This document shows, in pieces, positions 2,625 through 25,697 of a stretch of DNA of 40,188 nt. The DNA lies in assembly GCA_001793825.1 (NCBI GenBank), contig MGIQ01000001.1:1-40188 (forward strand), in the 5' to 3' direction. The notes beneath the pieces were generated by a model that ran no database searches, was not told the DNA's origin, and saw only the letters and a list, made by a program, of their open reading frames with translations. The number at the start of each line of letters is the position of its first letter. Within the stretch, counting starts at the first letter, position 1. Origin of the DNA: Candidatus Wolfebacteria bacterium RIFCSPLOWO2_01_FULL_38_11 (lineage in GTDB: Bacteria; Patescibacteriota; Minisyncoccia; UBA6257; UBA9933). Made by a program: the position numbers and the translations under genes.

Positions 2625-3961
2625 TGGCGATCTCATGTAAAAAAATTTTTTTAGCCACATTGTCTTTATTGGTTTTTTTTGGAACAATGGCCGTCGTTTT
2701 GGAAGATGTTGAAGCGATGATCGGCTGTTCCACCATTAATTCTTCCCAGATTAGAATTTATAAAACTGCCTGCGCTGACAGTTCTAATATTGTGGCGCGC
2801 AATGTCAACACTAATCAAACAAGTCCGACTTTAACCTGCGTCAGCCCTTATTGGAACAATACCGGCCTGACCGCGCTTTTTAATAATTACAGCAGTTCAG
2901 AGGGCCGGACATTTTGTATAGCTTCTTTATTATCCGGCGTATATCCTTCAATCAATATTAAGGTTAACTCAAATATCTCGGCTTCTTGGAGAATTACCGG
3001 TCCTCAAAATATTTATGATTCCGGCGTTTCCGGAGACTACACAATGCCGCCGGGAACTTACACTATAATTTGGGGCAGCGTCAGTGGTTATAATACTCCT
3101 CCTTCTGAAACCCTAACTGCTACCGCTTCCGGAAGTAACGCTATTATTACTTTTAACGGCAATTATCAGCCGTCTTCTCCACCGCCGCCTTCTGTTTCCT
3201 GCGCGCCGGATAAAACAGTTGCCAATACAGGAGAGATCGTCAGATGGAGCGTTATTCCTCCTTCAAGTTCGCCCGGAATCACTTATTCCTGGTCTGGCAC
3301 TGACGGTCTTTCGGGAAATACTGCGTCAGTTGATAAAATTTATTTTACCAGCGGCGCCAAAAGCGCTTCGGTAAACATAGCGACATTAGGCAGTCTTCGG
3401 CCGGCGACTTATTCCTGCGGAAACGTAAATATTGCTTCTTCGGTCGGCATCGTTAATGTTTCTTCTAATAATTCTTTCGCTTCCTGGACAATCACCGGTC
3501 CTTCAAATAAAACCGGTTCCGGATATTTTGATTCTTACGGCAATATGTCAGCAGGAATCTATACGATTGTCTGGAACTCGGTTTCCGGCTACAATACGCC
3601 AATTTCCGAATCAAAAAATTTAACTGACGGAGAAATAATAAATTTTTCAGGAATTTATAATCCAATAGCATCTGTTGCGCCTCTCTCAGTTTCCTGTTCG
3701 CCGAGCAAGACAAAAATTAAAATCAACGAAACGGTTGTTTGGACTGCTTCGGTAAGCGGCGGGATTTCTCCCTACAGCTATTCTTGGTTTGGCAGCGAGA
3801 GTTTAAGCGGTACGATCAATCCTATTGATAAACTTTATACAACCAGCGGAACTAAAAACGCTTATGTGACTGTCAAGGACAATGACGGACAGCAGTTAAC
3901 ATCCAATTGCGGCACAATAAGCGTTTCAAAAAGTAGTATAATAGAAACTCCTCCTCGTTAA
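2624..3961 (+). CDS. Secreted Ser/Thr-rich surface protein with two Ig-like repeats and two PKD-like modules
   Basis: Signal peptide; two WxITGP..YTIxW.SVSGYNTP repeats alternating with two VSC.P.KT...E.V.W...YSW.G...LSG....DK.Y.TSG.K.A.V modules. Confidence 0.78.
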   Translation: MAISCKKIFLATLSLLVFFGTMAVVLEDVEAMIGCSTINSSQIRIYKTACADSSNIVARNVNTNQTSPTLTCVSPYWNNTGLTALFNNYSSSEGRTFCIASLLSGVYPSINIKVNSNISASWRITGPQNIYDSGVSGDYTMPPGTYTIIWGSVSGYNTPPSETLTATASGSNAIITFNGNYQPSSPPPPSVSCAPDKTVANTGEIVRWSVIPPSSSPGITYSWSGTDGLSGNTASVDKIYFTSGAKSASVNIATLGSLRPATYSCGNVNIASSVGIVNVSSNNSFASWTITGPSNKTGSGYFDSYGNMSAGIYTIVWNSVSGYNTPISESKNLTDGEIINFSGIYNPIASVAPLSVSCSPSKTKIKINETVVWTASVSGGISPYSYSWFGSESLSGTINPIDKLYTTSGTKNAYVTVKDNDGQQLTSNCGTISVSKSSIIETPPR

Positions 3962-21106: not shown

Positions 21107-22210
21107 ATGGATATTAAAGAAAAAATTAACCTAATTTCTCGGCTCACTGAAGAAGTCATTGAAAAAGACGAGCTGGAGTTTTTGTTTTCTCAAAATATTC
21201 CCTTAAAGCATTATATTGGCTTGGAAATTTCCGGAAAAATTCATCTTGGCACTGGTTTGGTTTGCATGCAAAAAGTGAAAGATTTTGCCGATGTCGGAGT
21301 TAAGGTTCATATTTTTTTGGCTGATTATCACACTTGGATAAACGATAAGCTTAATGGTGATTTGGAAACAATTAAAAAAATAGCTGTTGGCTATTTTAAA
21401 GAAGGGTTGAGCGTTGCGTATAAATGTCTGGGTGGCAATCCGAAAGATTTGAATTTTATTCTTGCTTCTGATTTTTATCATAATAACGATATTTTTTGGC
21501 AAACTGTCATTGATGTCAGCAAAAACACAAGTTTGAGCCGGATGCAAAGAAGTATCACTATTTTAGGCAAAAAAGAAGGAGGCGAAGTTGATTTTGCCAA
21601 ACTTCTTTATCCGGCAATGCAAGTGGCTGATATTTTTGCCGGCGGTTTTCATTTTTCTCATGCCGGATTAGACCAAAGAAAGGCCAATGTTATTGCCCGT
21701 GACGTGGCAAATCATTTAAAATTCTCTCCTTTAAAAATTGGAGATAAAATTATCAAGCCCATTGCTGTTCACAATCACTTGCTTTTGGGATTAAGCAAGC
21801 CAACAGGCGATTCAGAAGAAGATTTACAAACTTCTATGAAAATGAGCAAATCAAAACCTGACAGCGCTATTTTTATTCACGACAGCGAAGATGAAATAAT
21901 AAGAAAAATCAAAAAAGCGTATTGTCCGGAAAAAGAAACAGAACTTAATCCTATAATTGATTGGGTAAAATATCTGATTTTTTCTCGCGAAGAAAAAATT
22001 GTTATAGAAAGGAATCCCGAGCACGGCGGAAATTTTGAATTTAGAAATTTTGAAGAATTGGAAAAATCTTATAAATCGGGCGAGCTTCATCCTGTTGATT
22101 TGAAAAATTTTGTTGCCGGATATTTAATTGAGCTTTTAAGGCCGGCGCGCGATCATTTTGCAAAAAGCGAGCCAAAAAAGATGCTTGAAGAATTGGAAGC
22201 GTTAATGTAA
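21107..22210 (+). CDS. tyrS: Tyrosyl-tRNA synthetase, archaeal/eukaryotic type
   Basis: YIGLEISG..HLG, LAD.H.W.N.K, YP.MQ.ADI, G.DQRK, KMSKS, KI.KAYCP, LHP.DLK; no C-terminal S4 domain; adjacent to tRNA-Tyr. Confidence 0.9.
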   Translation: MDIKEKINLISRLTEEVIEKDELEFLFSQNIPLKHYIGLEISGKIHLGTGLVCMQKVKDFADVGVKVHIFLADYHTWINDKLNGDLETIKKIAVGYFKEGLSVAYKCLGGNPKDLNFILASDFYHNNDIFWQTVIDVSKNTSLSRMQRSITILGKKEGGEVDFAKLLYPAMQVADIFAGGFHFSHAGLDQRKANVIARDVANHLKFSPLKIGDKIIKPIAVHNHLLLGLSKPTGDSEEDLQTSMKMSKSKPDSAIFIHDSEDEIIRKIKKAYCPEKETELNPIIDWVKYLIFSREEKIVIERNPEHGGNFEFRNFEELEKSYKSGELHPVDLKNFVAGYLIELLRPARDHFAKSEPKKMLEELEALM

Positions 22211-22240
22211 GATAATTTTTGCGCCAGAGTAGCTCAATGG

Positions 22241-22347
22241 TCCCCCACCCATTATTATGCCACCCTAGCTCAATGGCAGAGCAATACTTTTGTAAAGTAG
22301 AGGTTCGGGGTTCAACTCCCCGGGGTGGCTCAAAAATGGGTGGGGGA
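22241..22347 (+). mobile_element. tRNA-carrying mini-insert with 13-bp perfect IRs
   Basis: TCCCCCACCCATT (22241-22253) / AATGGGTGGGGGA (22335-22347) enclosing tRNA-Thr(UGU). Confidence 0.65.
22259..22330 (+). tRNA. tRNA-Thr(UGU), nested
   Basis: GCCACCC/GGGTGGC-T acceptor; TACT-TT TGT AA-AGTA; CGGGG-TTCAACT-CCCCG. Confidence 0.92.
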
Positions 22348-22376
22348 TAAAGCGAAAGTTGGCTGGCTCGCAATAT

Positions 22377-22448
22377 GCCGATGTAGCTCAGTGGTAGAGC
22401 AACTCCATGGTAAGGAGTAGGCCGCCAGTTCAATCCTGGCCATCGGCT
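22377..22448 (+). tRNA. tRNA-Thr(GGU)
   Basis: GCCGATG/CATCGGC-T; ACTCC-AT GGT AA-GGAGT; GCCAG-TTCAATC-CTGGC. Confidence 0.95.
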
Positions 22449-22513
22449 CAAATTTTTTTTCAAAGGAAAAAAAATTTGCCCCGAAGAAGCGAAGCGAAAG
22501 CGGGGCTATAAGT

Positions 22514-22780
22514 ATGTATTTTGTCTACATTTTAAAATCTAAAAGTACAGGCAGACATTATGTTGGCTATACAAATAATCTTCAAAGAAGATTAAAAGAA
22601 CATAACAACGGCAAAACTAGATCATTAGTAAAGTACATACCTCTTGAAATTATTTTAGTAGAAGAGTATAAAATATTAAAAGAAGCAAGAGAAAGAGAAA
22701 AACAAATTAAAAGCTATAAATCGGGCGAAGCATTTAAAAAATTATTAAATTTACAACCCACGCCTTCGGCGGGGTGCTGA
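22514..22780 (+). CDS. Stand-alone GIY-YIG nuclease
   Basis: YFVYIL.S....HYVGYT.NL.RRL.EHN.G, E..A..RE..IK; flanked by GC hairpins at 22478-22506 and 22756-22775. Confidence 0.93.
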   Translation: MYFVYILKSKSTGRHYVGYTNNLQRRLKEHNNGKTRSLVKYIPLEIILVEEYKILKEAREREKQIKSYKSGEAFKKLLNLQPTPSAGC

Positions 22781-22833
22781 ATTTTATAGATAAATTTTTT
22801 ATCGCTTTACTCAAAAATTTATATAAAATTCGC

Positions 22834-23001
22834 ATGGCAAAATCAAAATTTTCAGAAAATTTAATAAGACTTCGCTGTACTGTCTGCAAAAGAAATAATT
22901 ATTATACTCGCAAAAAGAAATCATTGGAGCGGAAAATTGAAGTTAAAAAATATTGTAAATGGTGCCGAAAACACACTCCGCATAAAGAAGCGAAAATATA
23001 A
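22834..23001 (+). CDS. rpmG: 50S ribosomal protein L33 (Zn-binding form)
   Basis: ATG at 22834; CTVC..NYYT.K, KKYCKWCRKHT.HKE. Confidence 0.95.
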   Translation: MAKSKFSENLIRLRCTVCKRNNYYTRKKKSLERKIEVKKYCKWCRKHTPHKEAKI

Positions 23002-23067
23002 TATTTTGATATTATATCAAAACATTAATTAGGGAGTTTAGGTAAGTGGCATAACGGCGGTCTCCAA

Positions 23068-23174
23068 CTCAGCACATTTAGTTTAAATGGGAGTGTCGTC
23101 CAATGGCAGGACTCTGGTCTCCAAAACCAGGTATCCAAGTTCGAATCTTGGCATTCCCGCAAAAATGTGCTGGG
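23068..23174 (+). mobile_element. tRNA-carrying mini-insert with 12-bp IRs
   Basis: CTCAGCACATTT (23068-23079) / AAATGTGCTGGG (23163-23174) enclosing tRNA-Trp. Confidence 0.65.
23089..23159 (+). tRNA. tRNA-Trp(CCA), nested
   Basis: GGGAGTG/CATTCCC-G; CTGGT-CT CCA AA-ACCAG; CCAAG-TTCGAAT-CTTGG. Confidence 0.94.
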
Positions 23175-23308
23175 CGATTCCCTCAATTCATTATTCTTAT
23201 TCCCTCCCTAGGTTTTTTGAACTTATTTTCTTTTTCCGAGATTTTATTATTAATTGGAATTAATCCAAACTTTTTATATAATAATTAAAATAAAACAAAC
23301 TTTCAATA

Positions 23309-23959
23309 ATGGATATTGATTTTGAAAATTTAATAAATTCACTAATTAAAGATGGTTATTTAAAAACTTCGGGCATAATAGAGGCTTTTAAAAAAATAAA
23401 TCGCAAAGATTTCGTTTCCGAAGAATATAAAAATGAAGCCTATATTAATGCTCCCCTGCCTATTGGTTTTGGGCAAACCATTTCTCAACCTTTAACCGTA
23501 GCTTTTATGCTTGAACTTCTTGAGCCAAAAAAAGGAGAGCGTATCTTGGATATTGGTTCCGGTTCTGGCTGGCAAACCGCAATACTTTCTTCTATTGTCG
23601 GCGATCCGCCGGCTGGCGGAGGTAGAGTTGTCGGTATGGAAAGAATTCCTGAGCTTAAAGAAATGGCCGAAAGAAACGTTTCCAAATATAATTTTATTGA
23701 AAAAAATATTGCCAGCATTATCTTGGCTGATGGTTCTTTTGGCTATAAAAGAGAATCGCCTTATGATAAAATTATTGCCGGAGCAGCCGCTGTAAAAGAC
23801 ATACCAATGGAATGGAAAAAACAGTTAAAAATCGGAGGCCGGATAGTCGCTCCCGTTGGTCATAGCGTTATTGTTATTGATAAAATTAGCAAAAATGAAT
23901 ATACTAAAAAAGAGTATTTTGGATTTAGCTTTGTCCCGCTTATCACTATTAACCATTAA
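23309..23959 (+). CDS. pcm: Protein-L-isoaspartate O-methyltransferase
   Basis: LPIG.GQTISQP, LDIGSGSGW, DGS.G, PYD.I, QL..GGR.V.PVG, F.FVPL. Confidence 0.94.
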   Translation: MDIDFENLINSLIKDGYLKTSGIIEAFKKINRKDFVSEEYKNEAYINAPLPIGFGQTISQPLTVAFMLELLEPKKGERILDIGSGSGWQTAILSSIVGDPPAGGGRVVGMERIPELKEMAERNVSKYNFIEKNIASIILADGSFGYKRESPYDKIIAGAAAVKDIPMEWKKQLKIGGRIVAPVGHSVIVIDKISKNEYTKKEYFGFSFVPLITINH

Positions 23960-23977
23960 CCATTTATCACCATACAT

Positions 23978-25231
23978 ATGGAACCCGCTCAAAAAATAGC
24001 GAAGATTTTAAGGACTGATAAAGATATTATTGAAAAACTGGCTGAAAAAGCCGAGGCCTTAACTGATAAAGAAAATATTTTGGAAAAAATTGTTAAGGGA
24101 AACGAAGCGCTTATTAAAAATCGCCTTCAGCTTAAAGAATTGGGTTCAAGCATTTCTGCGGAAGAAATTTATAAGGCCTTAATCGATAAAATAAAAGAAG
24201 ACGACCTTCAGCTTTTCAAAGCTCTTGGCAAGCCGTCTTTTATGTTAAAAGAAGATGTTGATTTTGTTTTGGAAAAAGTAAAGGATTTGGTGGTGCCTGC
24301 AGAAGGATTTTTCCTTAAAAAAGAAAAAGCGGTTGAATTTCTGAAAAAAGAACCACCCCAAAAAGTGATTGATTATCTCGGTTATAAAAATGTTGATGAG
24401 TTAATCAGTCGGGAAGATATTTTTGAAATCTTCGCCGCTATAAGAATTTTCGAAGATACTAAATGGCTTAATGATGTTTTCTCAAAACAATATTTATCAT
24501 TAACGCCGAATGATTTCGAAAAAAGAATGATAGAGATGCGGTCACTAAGCCAAAAATGGGTTGGAGTGGCTCAAACCTTTTTAAAGAAAAAATATCAAAA
24601 CATCTCTCATCTGAAAGAACTCGGCTATATTTTTGTGATTCCGGTTGAACTGGGGATGCTGGGAGAGGTGACTAGAATGTTTTCTTTGGCTCTTCATTAC
24701 TTTTTTGAAGTAAAATTCAACTCCGAGCTTTTCGAAAAATTTGCGAGTGAACCAGCTACTTTCGGGAAAAATTTTGCTTCAGTGATTAAAGTGGAAATAA
24801 TTGATAATCGTCCGCCGGAAACCGATAAACTTCGCTGGTTAATTATTCCGAGATATCTGGCGCGATACGATGAAAATGATTGGCGGCTTTTTGAGCCTCA
24901 TATTTCGCCCGAAGCTCTTTATTGGAAAAAGGCGGAAGACGCTTTGGTTAATATCAATAAAGTTTTGAAGGATGTTTATGTTAATTTTCTTTTTTGGCAG
25001 GACCTTGATTGGGTTGGCGATTATTTTAAAACAAAGACCGGCATAGAATCTTTGGTGAGTTTTAATTTAGTTGACGCGATTATGGCCTTAATCAGAGAAA
25101 AGGAACTTGAAAAGTATCTTTATCATCATCAGGAATCTCTTTGGAATAAAATTTTTATCGAATATTTTGGGGAAGAGAAGTTTGAGAAATTAATTAAAGA
25201 AAATTTCATTAAAGGCTATTTTGAAATGTAA
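23978..25231 (+). CDS. Hypothetical protein
   Basis: 417-aa ORF with host-like codon usage; no motif recognised. Confidence 0.8.
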   Translation: MEPAQKIAKILRTDKDIIEKLAEKAEALTDKENILEKIVKGNEALIKNRLQLKELGSSISAEEIYKALIDKIKEDDLQLFKALGKPSFMLKEDVDFVLEKVKDLVVPAEGFFLKKEKAVEFLKKEPPQKVIDYLGYKNVDELISREDIFEIFAAIRIFEDTKWLNDVFSKQYLSLTPNDFEKRMIEMRSLSQKWVGVAQTFLKKKYQNISHLKELGYIFVIPVELGMLGEVTRMFSLALHYFFEVKFNSELFEKFASEPATFGKNFASVIKVEIIDNRPPETDKLRWLIIPRYLARYDENDWRLFEPHISPEALYWKKAEDALVNINKVLKDVYVNFLFWQDLDWVGDYFKTKTGIESLVSFNLVDAIMALIREKELEKYLYHHQESLWNKIFIEYFGEEKFEKLIKENFIKGYFEM

Positions 25232-25240
25232 AAATTTAGT

Positions 25241-25277
25241 AATATAAAATCGCTCCGTTACGGAGCGATTTTATATT
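25241..25277. terminator. Bidirectional terminator
   Basis: AATATAAAATCGCTCCG-tta-CGGAGCGATTTTATATT perfect hairpin. Confidence 0.85.
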
Positions 25278-25370
25278 GAATTATCGGGCTGCCATCCTTC
25301 GCTAAAGCTACGGACTGGCAATCGCCCTTATTTCATTCGGGCTGCCGAGAATTGAACTCGGACCTCGTGC

Positions 25371-25405
25371 CTGCCCCGTAGCGAGCTTCGCTCTGCTACC
25401 GGGGT
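25371..25405 (-). repeat. 35-nt palindromic insert at the 3' edge of the outer tRNA-Pro anticodon loop
   Basis: ACCCCGGTAGCAGAGCGAAGCTCGCTACGGGGCAG (minus) hairpin capped by GCGAAGC. Confidence 0.8.
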
Positions 25406-25412
25406 TCCCAAA

Positions 25413-25529
25413 CCCCCACACTAAAAATTTATTTATCGGAGAGCCGAGAATCGAACTCGGACCTCGTGTTCCCAAAACACGTATACTACCACTATACTAC
25501 TCTCCGTTTAATTTTAGTGCGGGGCTAAC
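25413..25529 (-). mobile_element. tRNA-carrying mini-insert with 13-bp IRs
   Basis: CCCCACACTAAAA (25414-25426) / TTTTAGTGCGGGG (25512-25524) enclosing tRNA-Pro. Confidence 0.7.
25436..25506 (-). tRNA. tRNA-Pro(UGG), nested
   Basis: Minus strand CGGAGAG/CTCTCCG-A; CGTGT-TT TGG GA-ACACG; CCGAG-TTCGATT-CTCGG. Confidence 0.94.
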
Positions 25530-25625
25530 GCACGTATTACTACCACTATACTACAGCCCGCTTTTGGTATTGAAATTTTAAGCCAAAAAAATTATATTGT
25601 AAACACGTATTTGAATGAATAAATT

Positions 25626-25697
25626 GCCCTTGTAGCTCAATGGATAGAGCAGTGCTCTTCTAAGGCATTGATGCGGGTTCGATTCCTGCCGAGGGCA
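25626..25697 (+). tRNA. tRNA-Arg(UCU)
   Basis: GCCCTTG/CGAGGGC-A; GTGCT-CT TCT AA-GGCAT; GGTTCGATTCC. Confidence 0.94.

Follow-up and report, generated by a model that had tools for sequence, protein, structure and literature searches.

Complete tRNA genes nested within broken tRNA genes of the same identity in Candidatus Wolfebacteria bacterium RIFCSPLOWO2_01_FULL_38_11 and other Patescibacteria

In a stretch of 40,188 nucleotides from Candidatus Wolfebacteria bacterium RIFCSPLOWO2_01_FULL_38_11 (GenBank assembly GCA_001793825.1, contig MGIQ01000001.1; the whole stretch is hereafter the window), the genes for tRNA-Thr(UGU), tRNA-Trp(CCA) and tRNA-Pro(UGG) each lie between the separated halves of an older tRNA gene for the same amino acid, enclosed by short inverted repeats that are probably the ends of a small cassette. 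The same architecture of insertion with replacement recurs in related genomes, together with empty alleles, stacking to three levels and cassette ends common to different cargo tRNAs. The reading that we favour, with moderate confidence, is that a tRNA gene is broken in or near its anticodon arm by a repeat-bounded cassette of 107-111 bp carrying a complete cognate replacement, and that the outer halves are dead. The genome under study (G000) comprises 540,729 bp in 23 contigs (C1 and onwards), is 96% complete and has 41 detected tRNAs; related genomes are given G-numbers, individual loci that were read L-numbers, and sequencing runs X-numbers.

Three nested tRNA loci in the window

ARAGORN and Rfam, which agreed on eight tRNA genes in the window, placed the three intact tRNAs between GC-rich inverted repeats of 12-13 bp, and fragment matches identified the flanking sequences as parts of older cognate genes, as an earlier note made from the letters of the sequence had claimed. 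The parts of the three loci are listed below.

22223-22241 (+), outer tRNA-Thr 5' fragment, acceptor strand and D-arm up to the D-loop (nhmmer positions 1-19)
22241-22253 (+), left inverted repeat of the Thr cassette, TCCCCCACCCATT; G033 (L016) has an arm nearly identical to it
22259-22331 (+), inner tRNA-Thr(UGU), 62.8 bits
22335-22347 (+), right inverted repeat of the Thr cassette, AATGGGTGGGGGA
22348-22376 (+), decayed outer tRNA-Thr 3' relic, beginning TAAAGCGAAAG; the junction GGGGGATAAAGCGAA is common to G033
23032-23067 (+), outer tRNA-Trp 5' part, positions 1-36, ending in the anticodon loop CTCCAA
23068-23079 (+), left inverted repeat of the Trp cassette, CTCAGCACATTT
23089-23160 (+), inner tRNA-Trp(CCA), the only tRNA-Trp gene in the genome, of a type typical of other families
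23163-23174 (+), right inverted repeat of the Trp cassette, AAATGTGCTGGG
23175-23189 (+), outer tRNA-Trp 3' relic CGATTCCCTCAATTC (end of the T-loop, T-stem, start of the acceptor strand), matching CGATTCCCTCAACTCCCGC of relatives' tRNA-Trp
25525-25560 (-), outer tRNA-Pro 5' part, acceptor CGGGCTG, D-arm and 5' strand of the anticodon stem (nhmmer positions 1-31)
25512-25524 (-), left inverted repeat of the Pro cassette, CCCCGCACTAAAA; the arm also occurs in 35 metagenome cassettes
25436-25506 (-), inner tRNA-Pro(UGG), 65.3 bits
25414-25426 (-), right inverted repeat of the Pro cassette, TTTTAGTGTGGGG
25405-25413 (-), leftover anticodon loop of the outer tRNA-Pro, GTTTGGGAA; the layout recurs in metagenome loci L266, L290 and L330
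25374-25404 (-), cargo-less 31-nt palindrome CCCCGGTAGCAGAGCGAAGCTCGCTACGGGG within the outer tRNA-Pro, with the remaining anticodon loop on one side and the 3' part of the outer gene on the other
25337-25370 (-), outer tRNA-Pro 3' part, 3' strand of the anticodon stem, T-arm and acceptor CAGCCCG (nhmmer positions 38-71)
25575-25603 (-), promoter-like site TTTACA-17-TAAAAT, some 14 nt upstream of the 5' end of the outer tRNA-Pro (10/12 in a consensus scan, a pattern match only)

Measured from repeat to repeat, the inserts were 107 nt (Thr), 107 nt (Trp) and 111 nt (Pro), and they contained only a tRNA and no integrase gene. The three inner genes were the sole genes for their anticodons among the 41 tRNAs of G000. 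As the note had also stated, the inner acceptor stems differ from those of the interrupted genes: inner and outer stems were GCCACCC and GCCAGAG (Thr), GGGAGTG and GGGAGTT (Trp), and CGGAGAG and CGGGCTG (Pro). Its remark that the single mismatches in the Trp and Pro repeats are both G-T on the sense strand was correct, and the selection on a stem that it read from them is left undecided by 17 repeat stems from many genomes, with five G-T, two A-C and four other mismatches, too few for a decision.

The outer remnants were preserved to different degrees. The Thr 5' fragment was identical at 19 of 19 nucleotides to positions 1-19 of a relative's tRNA-Thr-UGU, and the outer gene lacked the 5' strand of the anticodon stem and the anticodon; the Trp 5' part was 92% identical to positions 1-36 of the uninterrupted tRNA-Trp of relatives, and positions 38 to about 56 were missing. 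The outer Pro 3' acceptor strand was complementary to 25554-25560, and the outer Pro acceptor was identical to that of the uninterrupted tRNA-Pro of G017. Six genomes, belonging to four other families, have the palindrome of this outer gene on its own, with 92-97% identity. The heptamer GCGAAGC, which forms the loop region in numerous small hairpins rich in GC, this palindrome among them, occurred 55+39 times in G000, with about 12 expected per strand. It was also noticed that downstream of the outer tRNA-Pro, at 25284-25326 (-), a hairpin precedes a duplicate of the final ten bases of the gene (GGCAGCCCGA), which looks like another displaced 3' end.

When the flanks of all 41 tRNAs of G000 were compared with 100 shuffles, a GC-rich flanking repeat of 11-15 matches, at least the maximum of the shuffles, was seen only at the Thr, Trp and Pro loci; the flank repeats of the other 38 had at most 10 matches and were mostly AT-only. 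The Thr, Trp and Pro regions folded into nested helices with z values of -5.3, -3.2 and -5.3, respectively. Independent public contigs (Logan) of run X2 covered 22150-22411, 22392-23541 and 25129-25650, and therefore span all three loci; one of run X4 covered 22150-22404 and spans the Thr locus. Junction-spanning sequence, for which the note had asked as a check, is thus available at every locus, and an assembly chimera is ruled out by these contigs and by recurrence in more than 100 assemblies. The nested arrangement of tRNAs at the three loci is real.

Empty, filled and stacked alleles in relatives

The 3.5-kb region was searched against 61 related genomes and the syntenic loci were read; order-wide searches with each of the three loci covered 401 genomes per search. 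Uninterrupted genes of the outer type, a further check suggested beforehand, were found for all three loci: tRNA-Thr(UGU) at syntenic loci of G017 and G027, tRNA-Pro with the window's outer acceptor stem in G017, and tRNA-Trp of the window's outer type in several genomes including G030 and G035. In G030, tRNA-Thr was nested, with outer halves of the G017/G027 type, positions 25-46 replaced, and a repeat that departs from the others by a compensated change (C>T with G>A). G033 also carried a nested tRNA-Thr with a repeat close to that of the window and the same right junction GGGGGATAAAGCGAA, in an outer gene that was far better preserved, and Thr junctions were common across the genera of G000, G033 and G011. 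In the order-wide searches, other families yielded numerous additional nested genes for Pro and Thr.

Three comparisons show how alleles differ between relatives. First, the inserts of G032 and G035 were near-identical, and compensated changes distinguish the acceptor stems of the outer genes around them. Second, G375, of the same genus as G032, had a gene of the inner type at the syntenic site with neither repeats nor halves, and G032 was nested. Third, in G402 (L074) outer, middle and inner tRNA-Pro formed three levels, the two related repeat pairs differing by a compensated A-T to G-C change. As to origin, the inner tRNA-Trp of the window had no match at E<=1e-12 in any of 41 genomes of its own family and was 95% identical to the tRNA-Trp of another family; the inner Trp and inner Pro were both closest to tRNAs of other families.

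Other displaced tRNA pieces were observed in these genomes. Downstream of the tRNA-Trp at 3161-3232 of G035:C7 (L012), a hairpin CCCGGCAGTTGCCGGG and the last 19 nt of tRNA-Trp were repeated in tandem, and upstream of the tRNA-Thr(GGU) at 407-479 of G032:C1 (L040), tandem units consisted of tRNA positions 1-23 and a 55-nt spacer. The latter type of tRNA-Thr fragment occurs singly in G017 (L002), with the break after the D-stem GAG, like that in the Thr-UGU cases.

Census of nested tRNA-Pro genes

One genome per species (185,579 species) was scanned for two tRNA-Pro D-arms lying closer together than a complete tRNA allows, a pattern that in itself favours loci with well-preserved outer D-arms. 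Among the 114 stretches obtained, 104 showed a complete tRNA-Pro behind a 5' fragment, 65 of them with a 3' fragment as well; the remaining 10 were chance matches or were cut by contig ends. Among the 80 titles listed, nearly all were Patescibacteria or members of the Parcubacteria group, with few other phyla, and L152 and L157, bearing titles of other phyla, were chance matches. The nested layout is common in the Candidate Phyla Radiation (CPR; Patescibacteria).

The break points all fell within tRNA positions 25-42. Outer acceptor strands paired at seven of seven positions in 47 of the 54 loci with both halves, and the 5' acceptor strands of inner and outer genes differed in 77 of 90 loci (identical in 13). 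A frequent layout consisted of repeat, inner tRNA, repeat, two further hairpins and outer 3' part, in which the structure was kept while the sequence changed. A flank stem score of >=16 was reached by 82 of 109 nested tRNA-Pro genes versus 3 of 109 flanks after shuffling and 13 of 126 neighbouring tRNAs; with 38 of the 41 tRNAs of G000 likewise lacking such repeats, plain processing stems around all tRNAs, which the note had named as an outcome to be checked, are excluded. In L164, L168 and L224, the 8 nt upstream of the inner and outer Pro genes are common to both and form part of the left arm, the right arm being their reverse complement, a hint that some repeats derive from the leader of the gene itself.

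Repeat families and their cargo

Metagenomes were scanned with a pattern derived from the Pro repeat of the window (GCACTAAAA, 78-108 nt, TTTTAGTGNGGG). Sixty-seven stretches were obtained, in which 44 repeat pairs enclosed a sense tRNA, leaving 35 distinct cassettes after removal of duplicates. All 35 are bounded by the identical repeat CCCCGCACTAAAA/TTTTAGTGCGGGG, and together they carry 15 anticodons for 10 amino acids (Arg-GCG, Asp, Glu-CUC/UUC, Gly-CCC, Ile-GAU, Phe, Pro-CGG/GGG/UGG, Ser-CGA/UGA, Trp and Val-CAC/GAC). In a genome record, an Ala-CGC cassette is enclosed by a near-identical repeat. A different repeat, CCCGCCCCCACACCAAT, is common to cassettes with Arg-CCU, Thr and Pro, and Gly-UCC was found nested too. 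Comparison of the flanks of the 44 cassettes by BLAST with a limited tRNA library identified 21 as cognate. Where junctions were read directly, the anticodon loop of the cargo's own kind was cut open, for example after CTCCAA for Trp, after CCTGA for Ile, and between TTTGA and CA for Val-GAC, with ACTGAAAAT following the Phe cassette.

The junctions were not uniform. At some, 2-4 nt were repeated (GGG in G032/G035, TTT in L081), L126 and L202 were clean, and deletions of 11-22 nt accompanied the inserts of G033 and G030. Within a genome there was one cassette per target tRNA. With respect to other carriers or uses of the repeats, a viral scan for phage-borne cassettes gave two chance matches, both without a tRNA, and a DNA-uptake sequence was dismissed, the arm CCCCGCAC being weakly over-represented in G000 (5+3 versus 1.4 expected per strand).

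Proposed history of the cassettes

The empty alleles in relatives and the same ends around many cargo tRNAs bear out the proposal of the earlier note that the insertions disrupt a tRNA gene while providing an entire substitute of like identity, and its view that they are events of different ages is also supported. In the reading that we favour, cassettes would be mobile DNA, or descendants of such DNA, spreading between Patescibacteria, and the cognate target would be found via the tRNA sequence itself. The most economical route would be recombination of a nested allele into a plain allele, with the conserved outer halves as homology arms that the repeat stem may hold side by side in DNA; such homologous replacement would need no enzyme linked to the cassette and would fit serial nesting. 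The nested gene may be transcribed from the promoter of the outer gene; the consensus scan called no promoter-like site within the cassettes. In the precursor RNA, the repeats may pair, prevent the inner tRNA from forming wrong pairs with the outer halves, which resemble it, and offer it to RNase P and RNase Z, a role that would explain why the repeats stay complementary, or the left arm identical, while the outer halves decay. The inner gene would then do the work, and the outer halves would decay and gather further small palindromes. In this reading, the repeats are cassette ends that probably also form a stem in the precursor RNA. Life without RNase P, combined with leaderless transcription from a repeat arm, was rejected, as RNase P RNA is encoded in G000.

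A further-reaching version, which we offer only tentatively, is that these are selfish tRNA-replacement cassettes: minimal units of repeat stem and tRNA that would invade a cognate gene addressed by the tRNA sequence, kill the resident copy, become indispensable and be overrun in turn, so that tRNA turnover would proceed by serial nesting and not by point mutation, the stem joining the homology arms in DNA and freeing the inner tRNA in RNA.

Several observations weigh against the favoured reading. Recombination through the outer halves explains the spread, and not the presence of one repeat sequence around 10 amino-acid identities. No mobilising enzyme was linked to the cassettes, and no open reading frame (ORF) family stood consistently beside the 104 nested loci, the ORFs that clustered there being spurious ones through tRNAs and syntenic housekeeping genes. 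Neither the same cassette at two sites in one genome nor an excised form was seen, and we therefore infer mobility from comparison only. For 11 of the 44 metagenome cassettes the flanks were assigned to another amino acid, through generic D- and T-arm stretches only, and 12 of the 44 gave no hit, so that cognate flanks beyond 21 of 44 rest on junctions read by eye. In several loci titled Yonathbacteria the inner and outer halves were identical, and in 2 of 90 Pro loci, against about 0.02 expected, the 8 nt upstream of the inner gene were those of the outer; both point to local copying or gene conversion, not foreign DNA. A GIY-YIG gene, described below, was found at only 7 of the 114 Pro-scan loci. 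Finally, the scan patterns were derived from nested examples, because of which the frequencies are not unbiased.

These points also limit two claims of the earlier note. Its non-autonomous mobile element stands as far as insertion is concerned, and movement of its own or in trans is not borne out, with no enzyme found and no identical copies at several sites per genome. The foreign origin that it gave to the inner genes is supported for Trp, which is of another family's type, and less so for those lineages in which inner and outer halves are identical. Nor do the data bear out the change of att sites or anticodon-nuclease targets that it expected.

Other nested genes in the same genome and the tRNA-Val island

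Additional cases in G000 were collected by short-word BLAST of all tRNAs gathered, keeping the hits outside annotated tRNAs. The tRNA-Glu(UUC) at C16:11185-11257 was nested in a gene almost identical to the intact tRNA-Glu(CUC), with the repeat CCCCCACTCAGT / ATTGAGTGGGGG. Next to tRNA-Pro(GGG) on C20, only the outer 5' half and the left arm CCCAGCACTAAAATTT were present, arm and spacer being identical in G014 though the outer halves differ at about one third of positions. A 5' relic lay upstream of tRNA-Arg(CCU). A gene or fragment of tRNA-Asn was not found in the 96%-complete genome.

The tRNA-Val(CAC) at C3:16352-16426 had an outer 5' half and the arm CCTGTTAGATTT upstream, and downstream a large serine recombinase (LSR) gene, a MamI-like restriction enzyme, a DNA methylase (N6/N4) and the contig end. 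The LSR gene (C3:16383-17936, -; Resolvase, Recombinase and Zn_ribbon_recom domains) is convergent with the tRNA, and its ORF was seen to run antisense into the 3' part of the replacement tRNA-Val (island G000:C3:16290-20410 and C13:1-263; L337, L338). A lone outer 3' half of tRNA-Val occupies C13:225-263, directly after the inverted arm AAATCTAACGGGG, with an acceptor strand (AGCGCCC) complementary to the GGGCGCT in the 5' half on C3. The matching halves and arms on C3 and C13 therefore indicate a full-size island with cassette-like ends that splits a tRNA gene in G000.

Based on this island, the cassettes could be the remains of LSR islands that entered the anticodon region with a whole replacement tRNA at one end, the repeats being attP half-sites and later deletions having removed recombinase and cargo. 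We regard this origin as unlikely, yet as the strongest competitor. In its favour, the repeat type of the Val island (CCCCGTTAGA...) also bounds many mini cassettes (L167, L231, L258 and others), LSR homologues were present in 127 of 301 genomes of the order with the 3' end convergent with a tRNA in 20 of the 30 loci examined (L341-L370), and an LSR gene was next to, or LSR fragments near, the nested loci L250, L329, L055, L094 and L167. However, among those 30 loci a cassette-type repeat beside the tRNA was found only at G000's own, and an outer 5' fragment only there and perhaps at L345; the C3/C13 junction crosses a contig break; and random deletion would have difficulty in producing ends within 3-12 nt of the tRNA in over 100 lineages. 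The use of one attP half-site sequence with many tRNA targets is also unlike the known site choice of LSRs. Since the link is weak at the other LSR loci, the island may equally have entered an existing cassette, and it is a lead on mobilisation, not proof. In the loci L341-L370 it was also observed that the LSR gene often overlaps the tRNA 3' end, that the identities of these tRNAs are varied, and that most of them have an encoded CCA.

With respect to other enzymes, G000 encodes one tyrosine recombinase (far from the nested loci and without an array), the ligase RtcB and two LSRs; searches of G000 for Y1 transposase, the one transposase family covered, and for reverse transcriptase gave nothing. 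A single-copy GIY-YIG ORF at 22514-22780 encodes 88 amino acids comprising the catalytic domain only (PF01541), and its homologues adjoin nested or relic tRNA loci in G033, G032 and G022. It has tRNA-Thr(GGU) and rpmG as its neighbours and is located between the Thr and Trp loci; GC-rich hairpins (22478-22508 and 22761-22781) frame it. Contigs of X1 and X5 join 22450 to 22833/22834 and therefore lack the ORF, the joined sides being only 28 nt long. A 417-aa ORF at 23978-25231, between the PCMT gene and the Pro locus, had no Pfam match, and paralogue-like DNA of 68% identity is present at G000:C9:15934-16849.

Alternatives based on repair, duplication or splicing

The second alternative is a scar of repair, in which cargo-less palindromes are mobile and strike tRNA loops. 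A cell hit in a single-copy tRNA gene would survive only when a whole cognate tRNA, taken from imported DNA or the sister chromosome, is copied by repair into the broken palindrome, so that halves, palindrome arms and a new full gene are left. Such palindromes with cassette-like ends do lie in the D-, anticodon- and T-loops of outer relics (L278, L293, L081, L082, L077, L092, and 25374-25404 in the window), and the idea accounts for cognate cargo, for one repeat family with many tRNAs, and for loci in which inner and outer genes are identical including the upstream 8 nt (L164, L168). A mechanism of this kind is undocumented, though, and ordinary gene conversion should simply restore the gene; moreover, the inner gene differs from the outer in 77 of 90 acceptor strands, and no palindrome within a working tRNA gene was found in G000. 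We consider this course of events improbable.

A still poorer account would do without mobility, a tRNA gene being duplicated into itself and combined with leader-trailer processing stems, gene conversion and vertical inheritance. The identity of inner and outer halves in some lineages, the Thr junctions common to the genera of G000, G033 and G011, and the conservation of the repeat despite outer decay would suit it. It is very hard to reconcile with the same 13-nt repeat around tRNAs of 10 amino-acid identities in unrelated contigs, with inner Trp and Pro genes closest to the tRNAs of other families, with close relatives that differ in presence (G032 nested and G375 plain within one genus), or with near-identical inserts in the different outer genes of G032 and G035, and we give it little credence.

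The earlier note had offered a tRNA-containing intron as its own alternative, in which removal of the insert by splicing still yields the outer tRNA and both tRNAs are functional; the outer Pro keeps all its arms, outer acceptor stems pair in 47 of 54 loci, folding of the regions gives nested helices (z from -3.2 to -5.3) and RtcB is present, but the outer Thr and Trp lack essential parts and several loci a whole 3' half, simple excision leaves positions 38-40 unrestored in the common layout, outer halves bear extra palindromes in the D- and T-loops, no tRNA-splicing endonuclease (PF01974) was found in the 96%-complete G000, Rfam matched no group I or other self-splicing intron or ribozyme family in the window region and 12 nested loci (tRNA and sub-threshold chance hits apart), and the intron mode of ARAGORN yielded nothing new, which together make this the least credible of the explanations.

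Comparison with known systems

The use of tRNA genes as integration sites, with partial tRNA copies as scars and with serial integrations, is textbook knowledge. Islands, prophages and integrative and conjugative elements of this kind target the tRNA gene, often in a stem-loop, and leave tRNA-fragment scars, as described in the part of the review available to us (PMC9897764). The cassettes favoured here resemble them in having a tRNA target, a function kept by imported tRNA sequence, a fragment scar and serial integration. Known islands bring no more of the tRNA than lies beyond the crossover, giving one hybrid gene and a partial copy as direct repeats, on a kilobase scale and with an integrase, whereas the cassettes bring a whole new gene, keep both old halves, end in inverted repeats, measure about 110 bp and hold no gene but the tRNA. 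With regard to features of the island type, an integrase gene inside the element is seen only in the separate tRNA-Val island on C3, the three loci of the window had no direct repeats from partial duplication of the target and no hybrid gene, and the inner acceptor differs on both strands; an empty site in relatives is present (Thr in G017/G027, Pro in G017, Trp in G030, G035 and others).

Tycheposons of Prochlorococcus also target tRNA genes in streamlined genomes, a few of them with large serine recombinases, and older ones are pushed aside leaving partial tRNAs, according to the accessible part of the preprint (bioRxiv 10.1101/2020.12.28.424599). They use partial tRNAs as attachment sites, carry cargo, are kilobase-scale and encode an integrase, and a whole nested replacement gene is not described in that part. 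In the archaeon Caldiarchaeum subterraneum, the accessible text reports a tRNA-Thr(GGU) locus with a 5' fragment, a 1.8-kb spacer with a recombinase (a putative mobile element) and a complete tRNA with introns (PMC3293823). As far as that text goes, the locus is similar to the C3/C13 tRNA-Val island of G000 in its 5' fragment, recombinase element and full tRNA of the same identity, and is different from the cassettes in being archaeal, a single locus and without an inverted-repeat mini cassette.

Outside the tRNA-targeting elements, partial likenesses were found. The elements known as MITEs (miniature inverted-repeat transposable elements) are short, have terminal inverted repeats and no transposase, form families defined by their ends and include cargo-less palindromic versions. 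The cassettes likewise have repeat ends shared by families (the 35 with CCCCGCACTAAAA/TTTTAGTGCGGGG, and other recurring ones). However, MITEs are multi-copy, usually intergenic, make target-site duplications and bear no functional gene, whereas in the cassettes no clear duplication was seen, and they have one copy per target and a functional tRNA cargo and lie only within cognate tRNA genes. Archaeal tRNA genes that are intron-bearing, split or permuted are interrupted at or near the anticodon loop, with helices beside the junctions; those genes are functional and need a splicing endonuclease, whereas here the interrupted gene would be dead and the insert is the functional tRNA. In integrons, attC is an imperfect palindrome at one end of a cassette, and an integrase builds an array at attI; the present repeats, in contrast, stand at both ends and enclose the cargo, and G000 has no array. 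The GIY-YIG gene segB of phage T4, lying among tRNA genes, drives preferential inheritance of the tRNA region (PMC2330249, accessible part). As far as can be compared with that part, the 88-aa ORF of the window is different in having the catalytic domain only and in adjoining 7 of 114 nested loci.

The combination of a complete replacement nested in the anticodon region, a gene-free unit of about 110 bp apart from its tRNA, multi-cargo families and multi-level nesting in bacteria was not found in the literature searches made; the supplementary tables of PMC9897764 (Table S3) and the tycheposon preprint could hold related cases. We place the cassettes among the tRNA-targeting insertions; they may yet make up a distinct class of self-addressed replacement cassettes.

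Implications

Finders of tRNA genes report only the inner gene at such loci, and the fragments are open to miscalling; tRNA phylogeny and the inference of codon usage in CPR genomes are affected as well. The nested loci bear on why tRNA genes are favoured as integration sites and on how disrupted tRNA genes arise, and the cassettes could mark gene flow among uncultured lineages. If the favoured reading is true, mobile-element biology would gain a cargo-carrying unit of about 110 bp addressed to its own homologue, and the single-copy essential tRNA genes of the most reduced bacterial genomes would be replaced horizontally, leaving a fossil record of up to three generations per locus.

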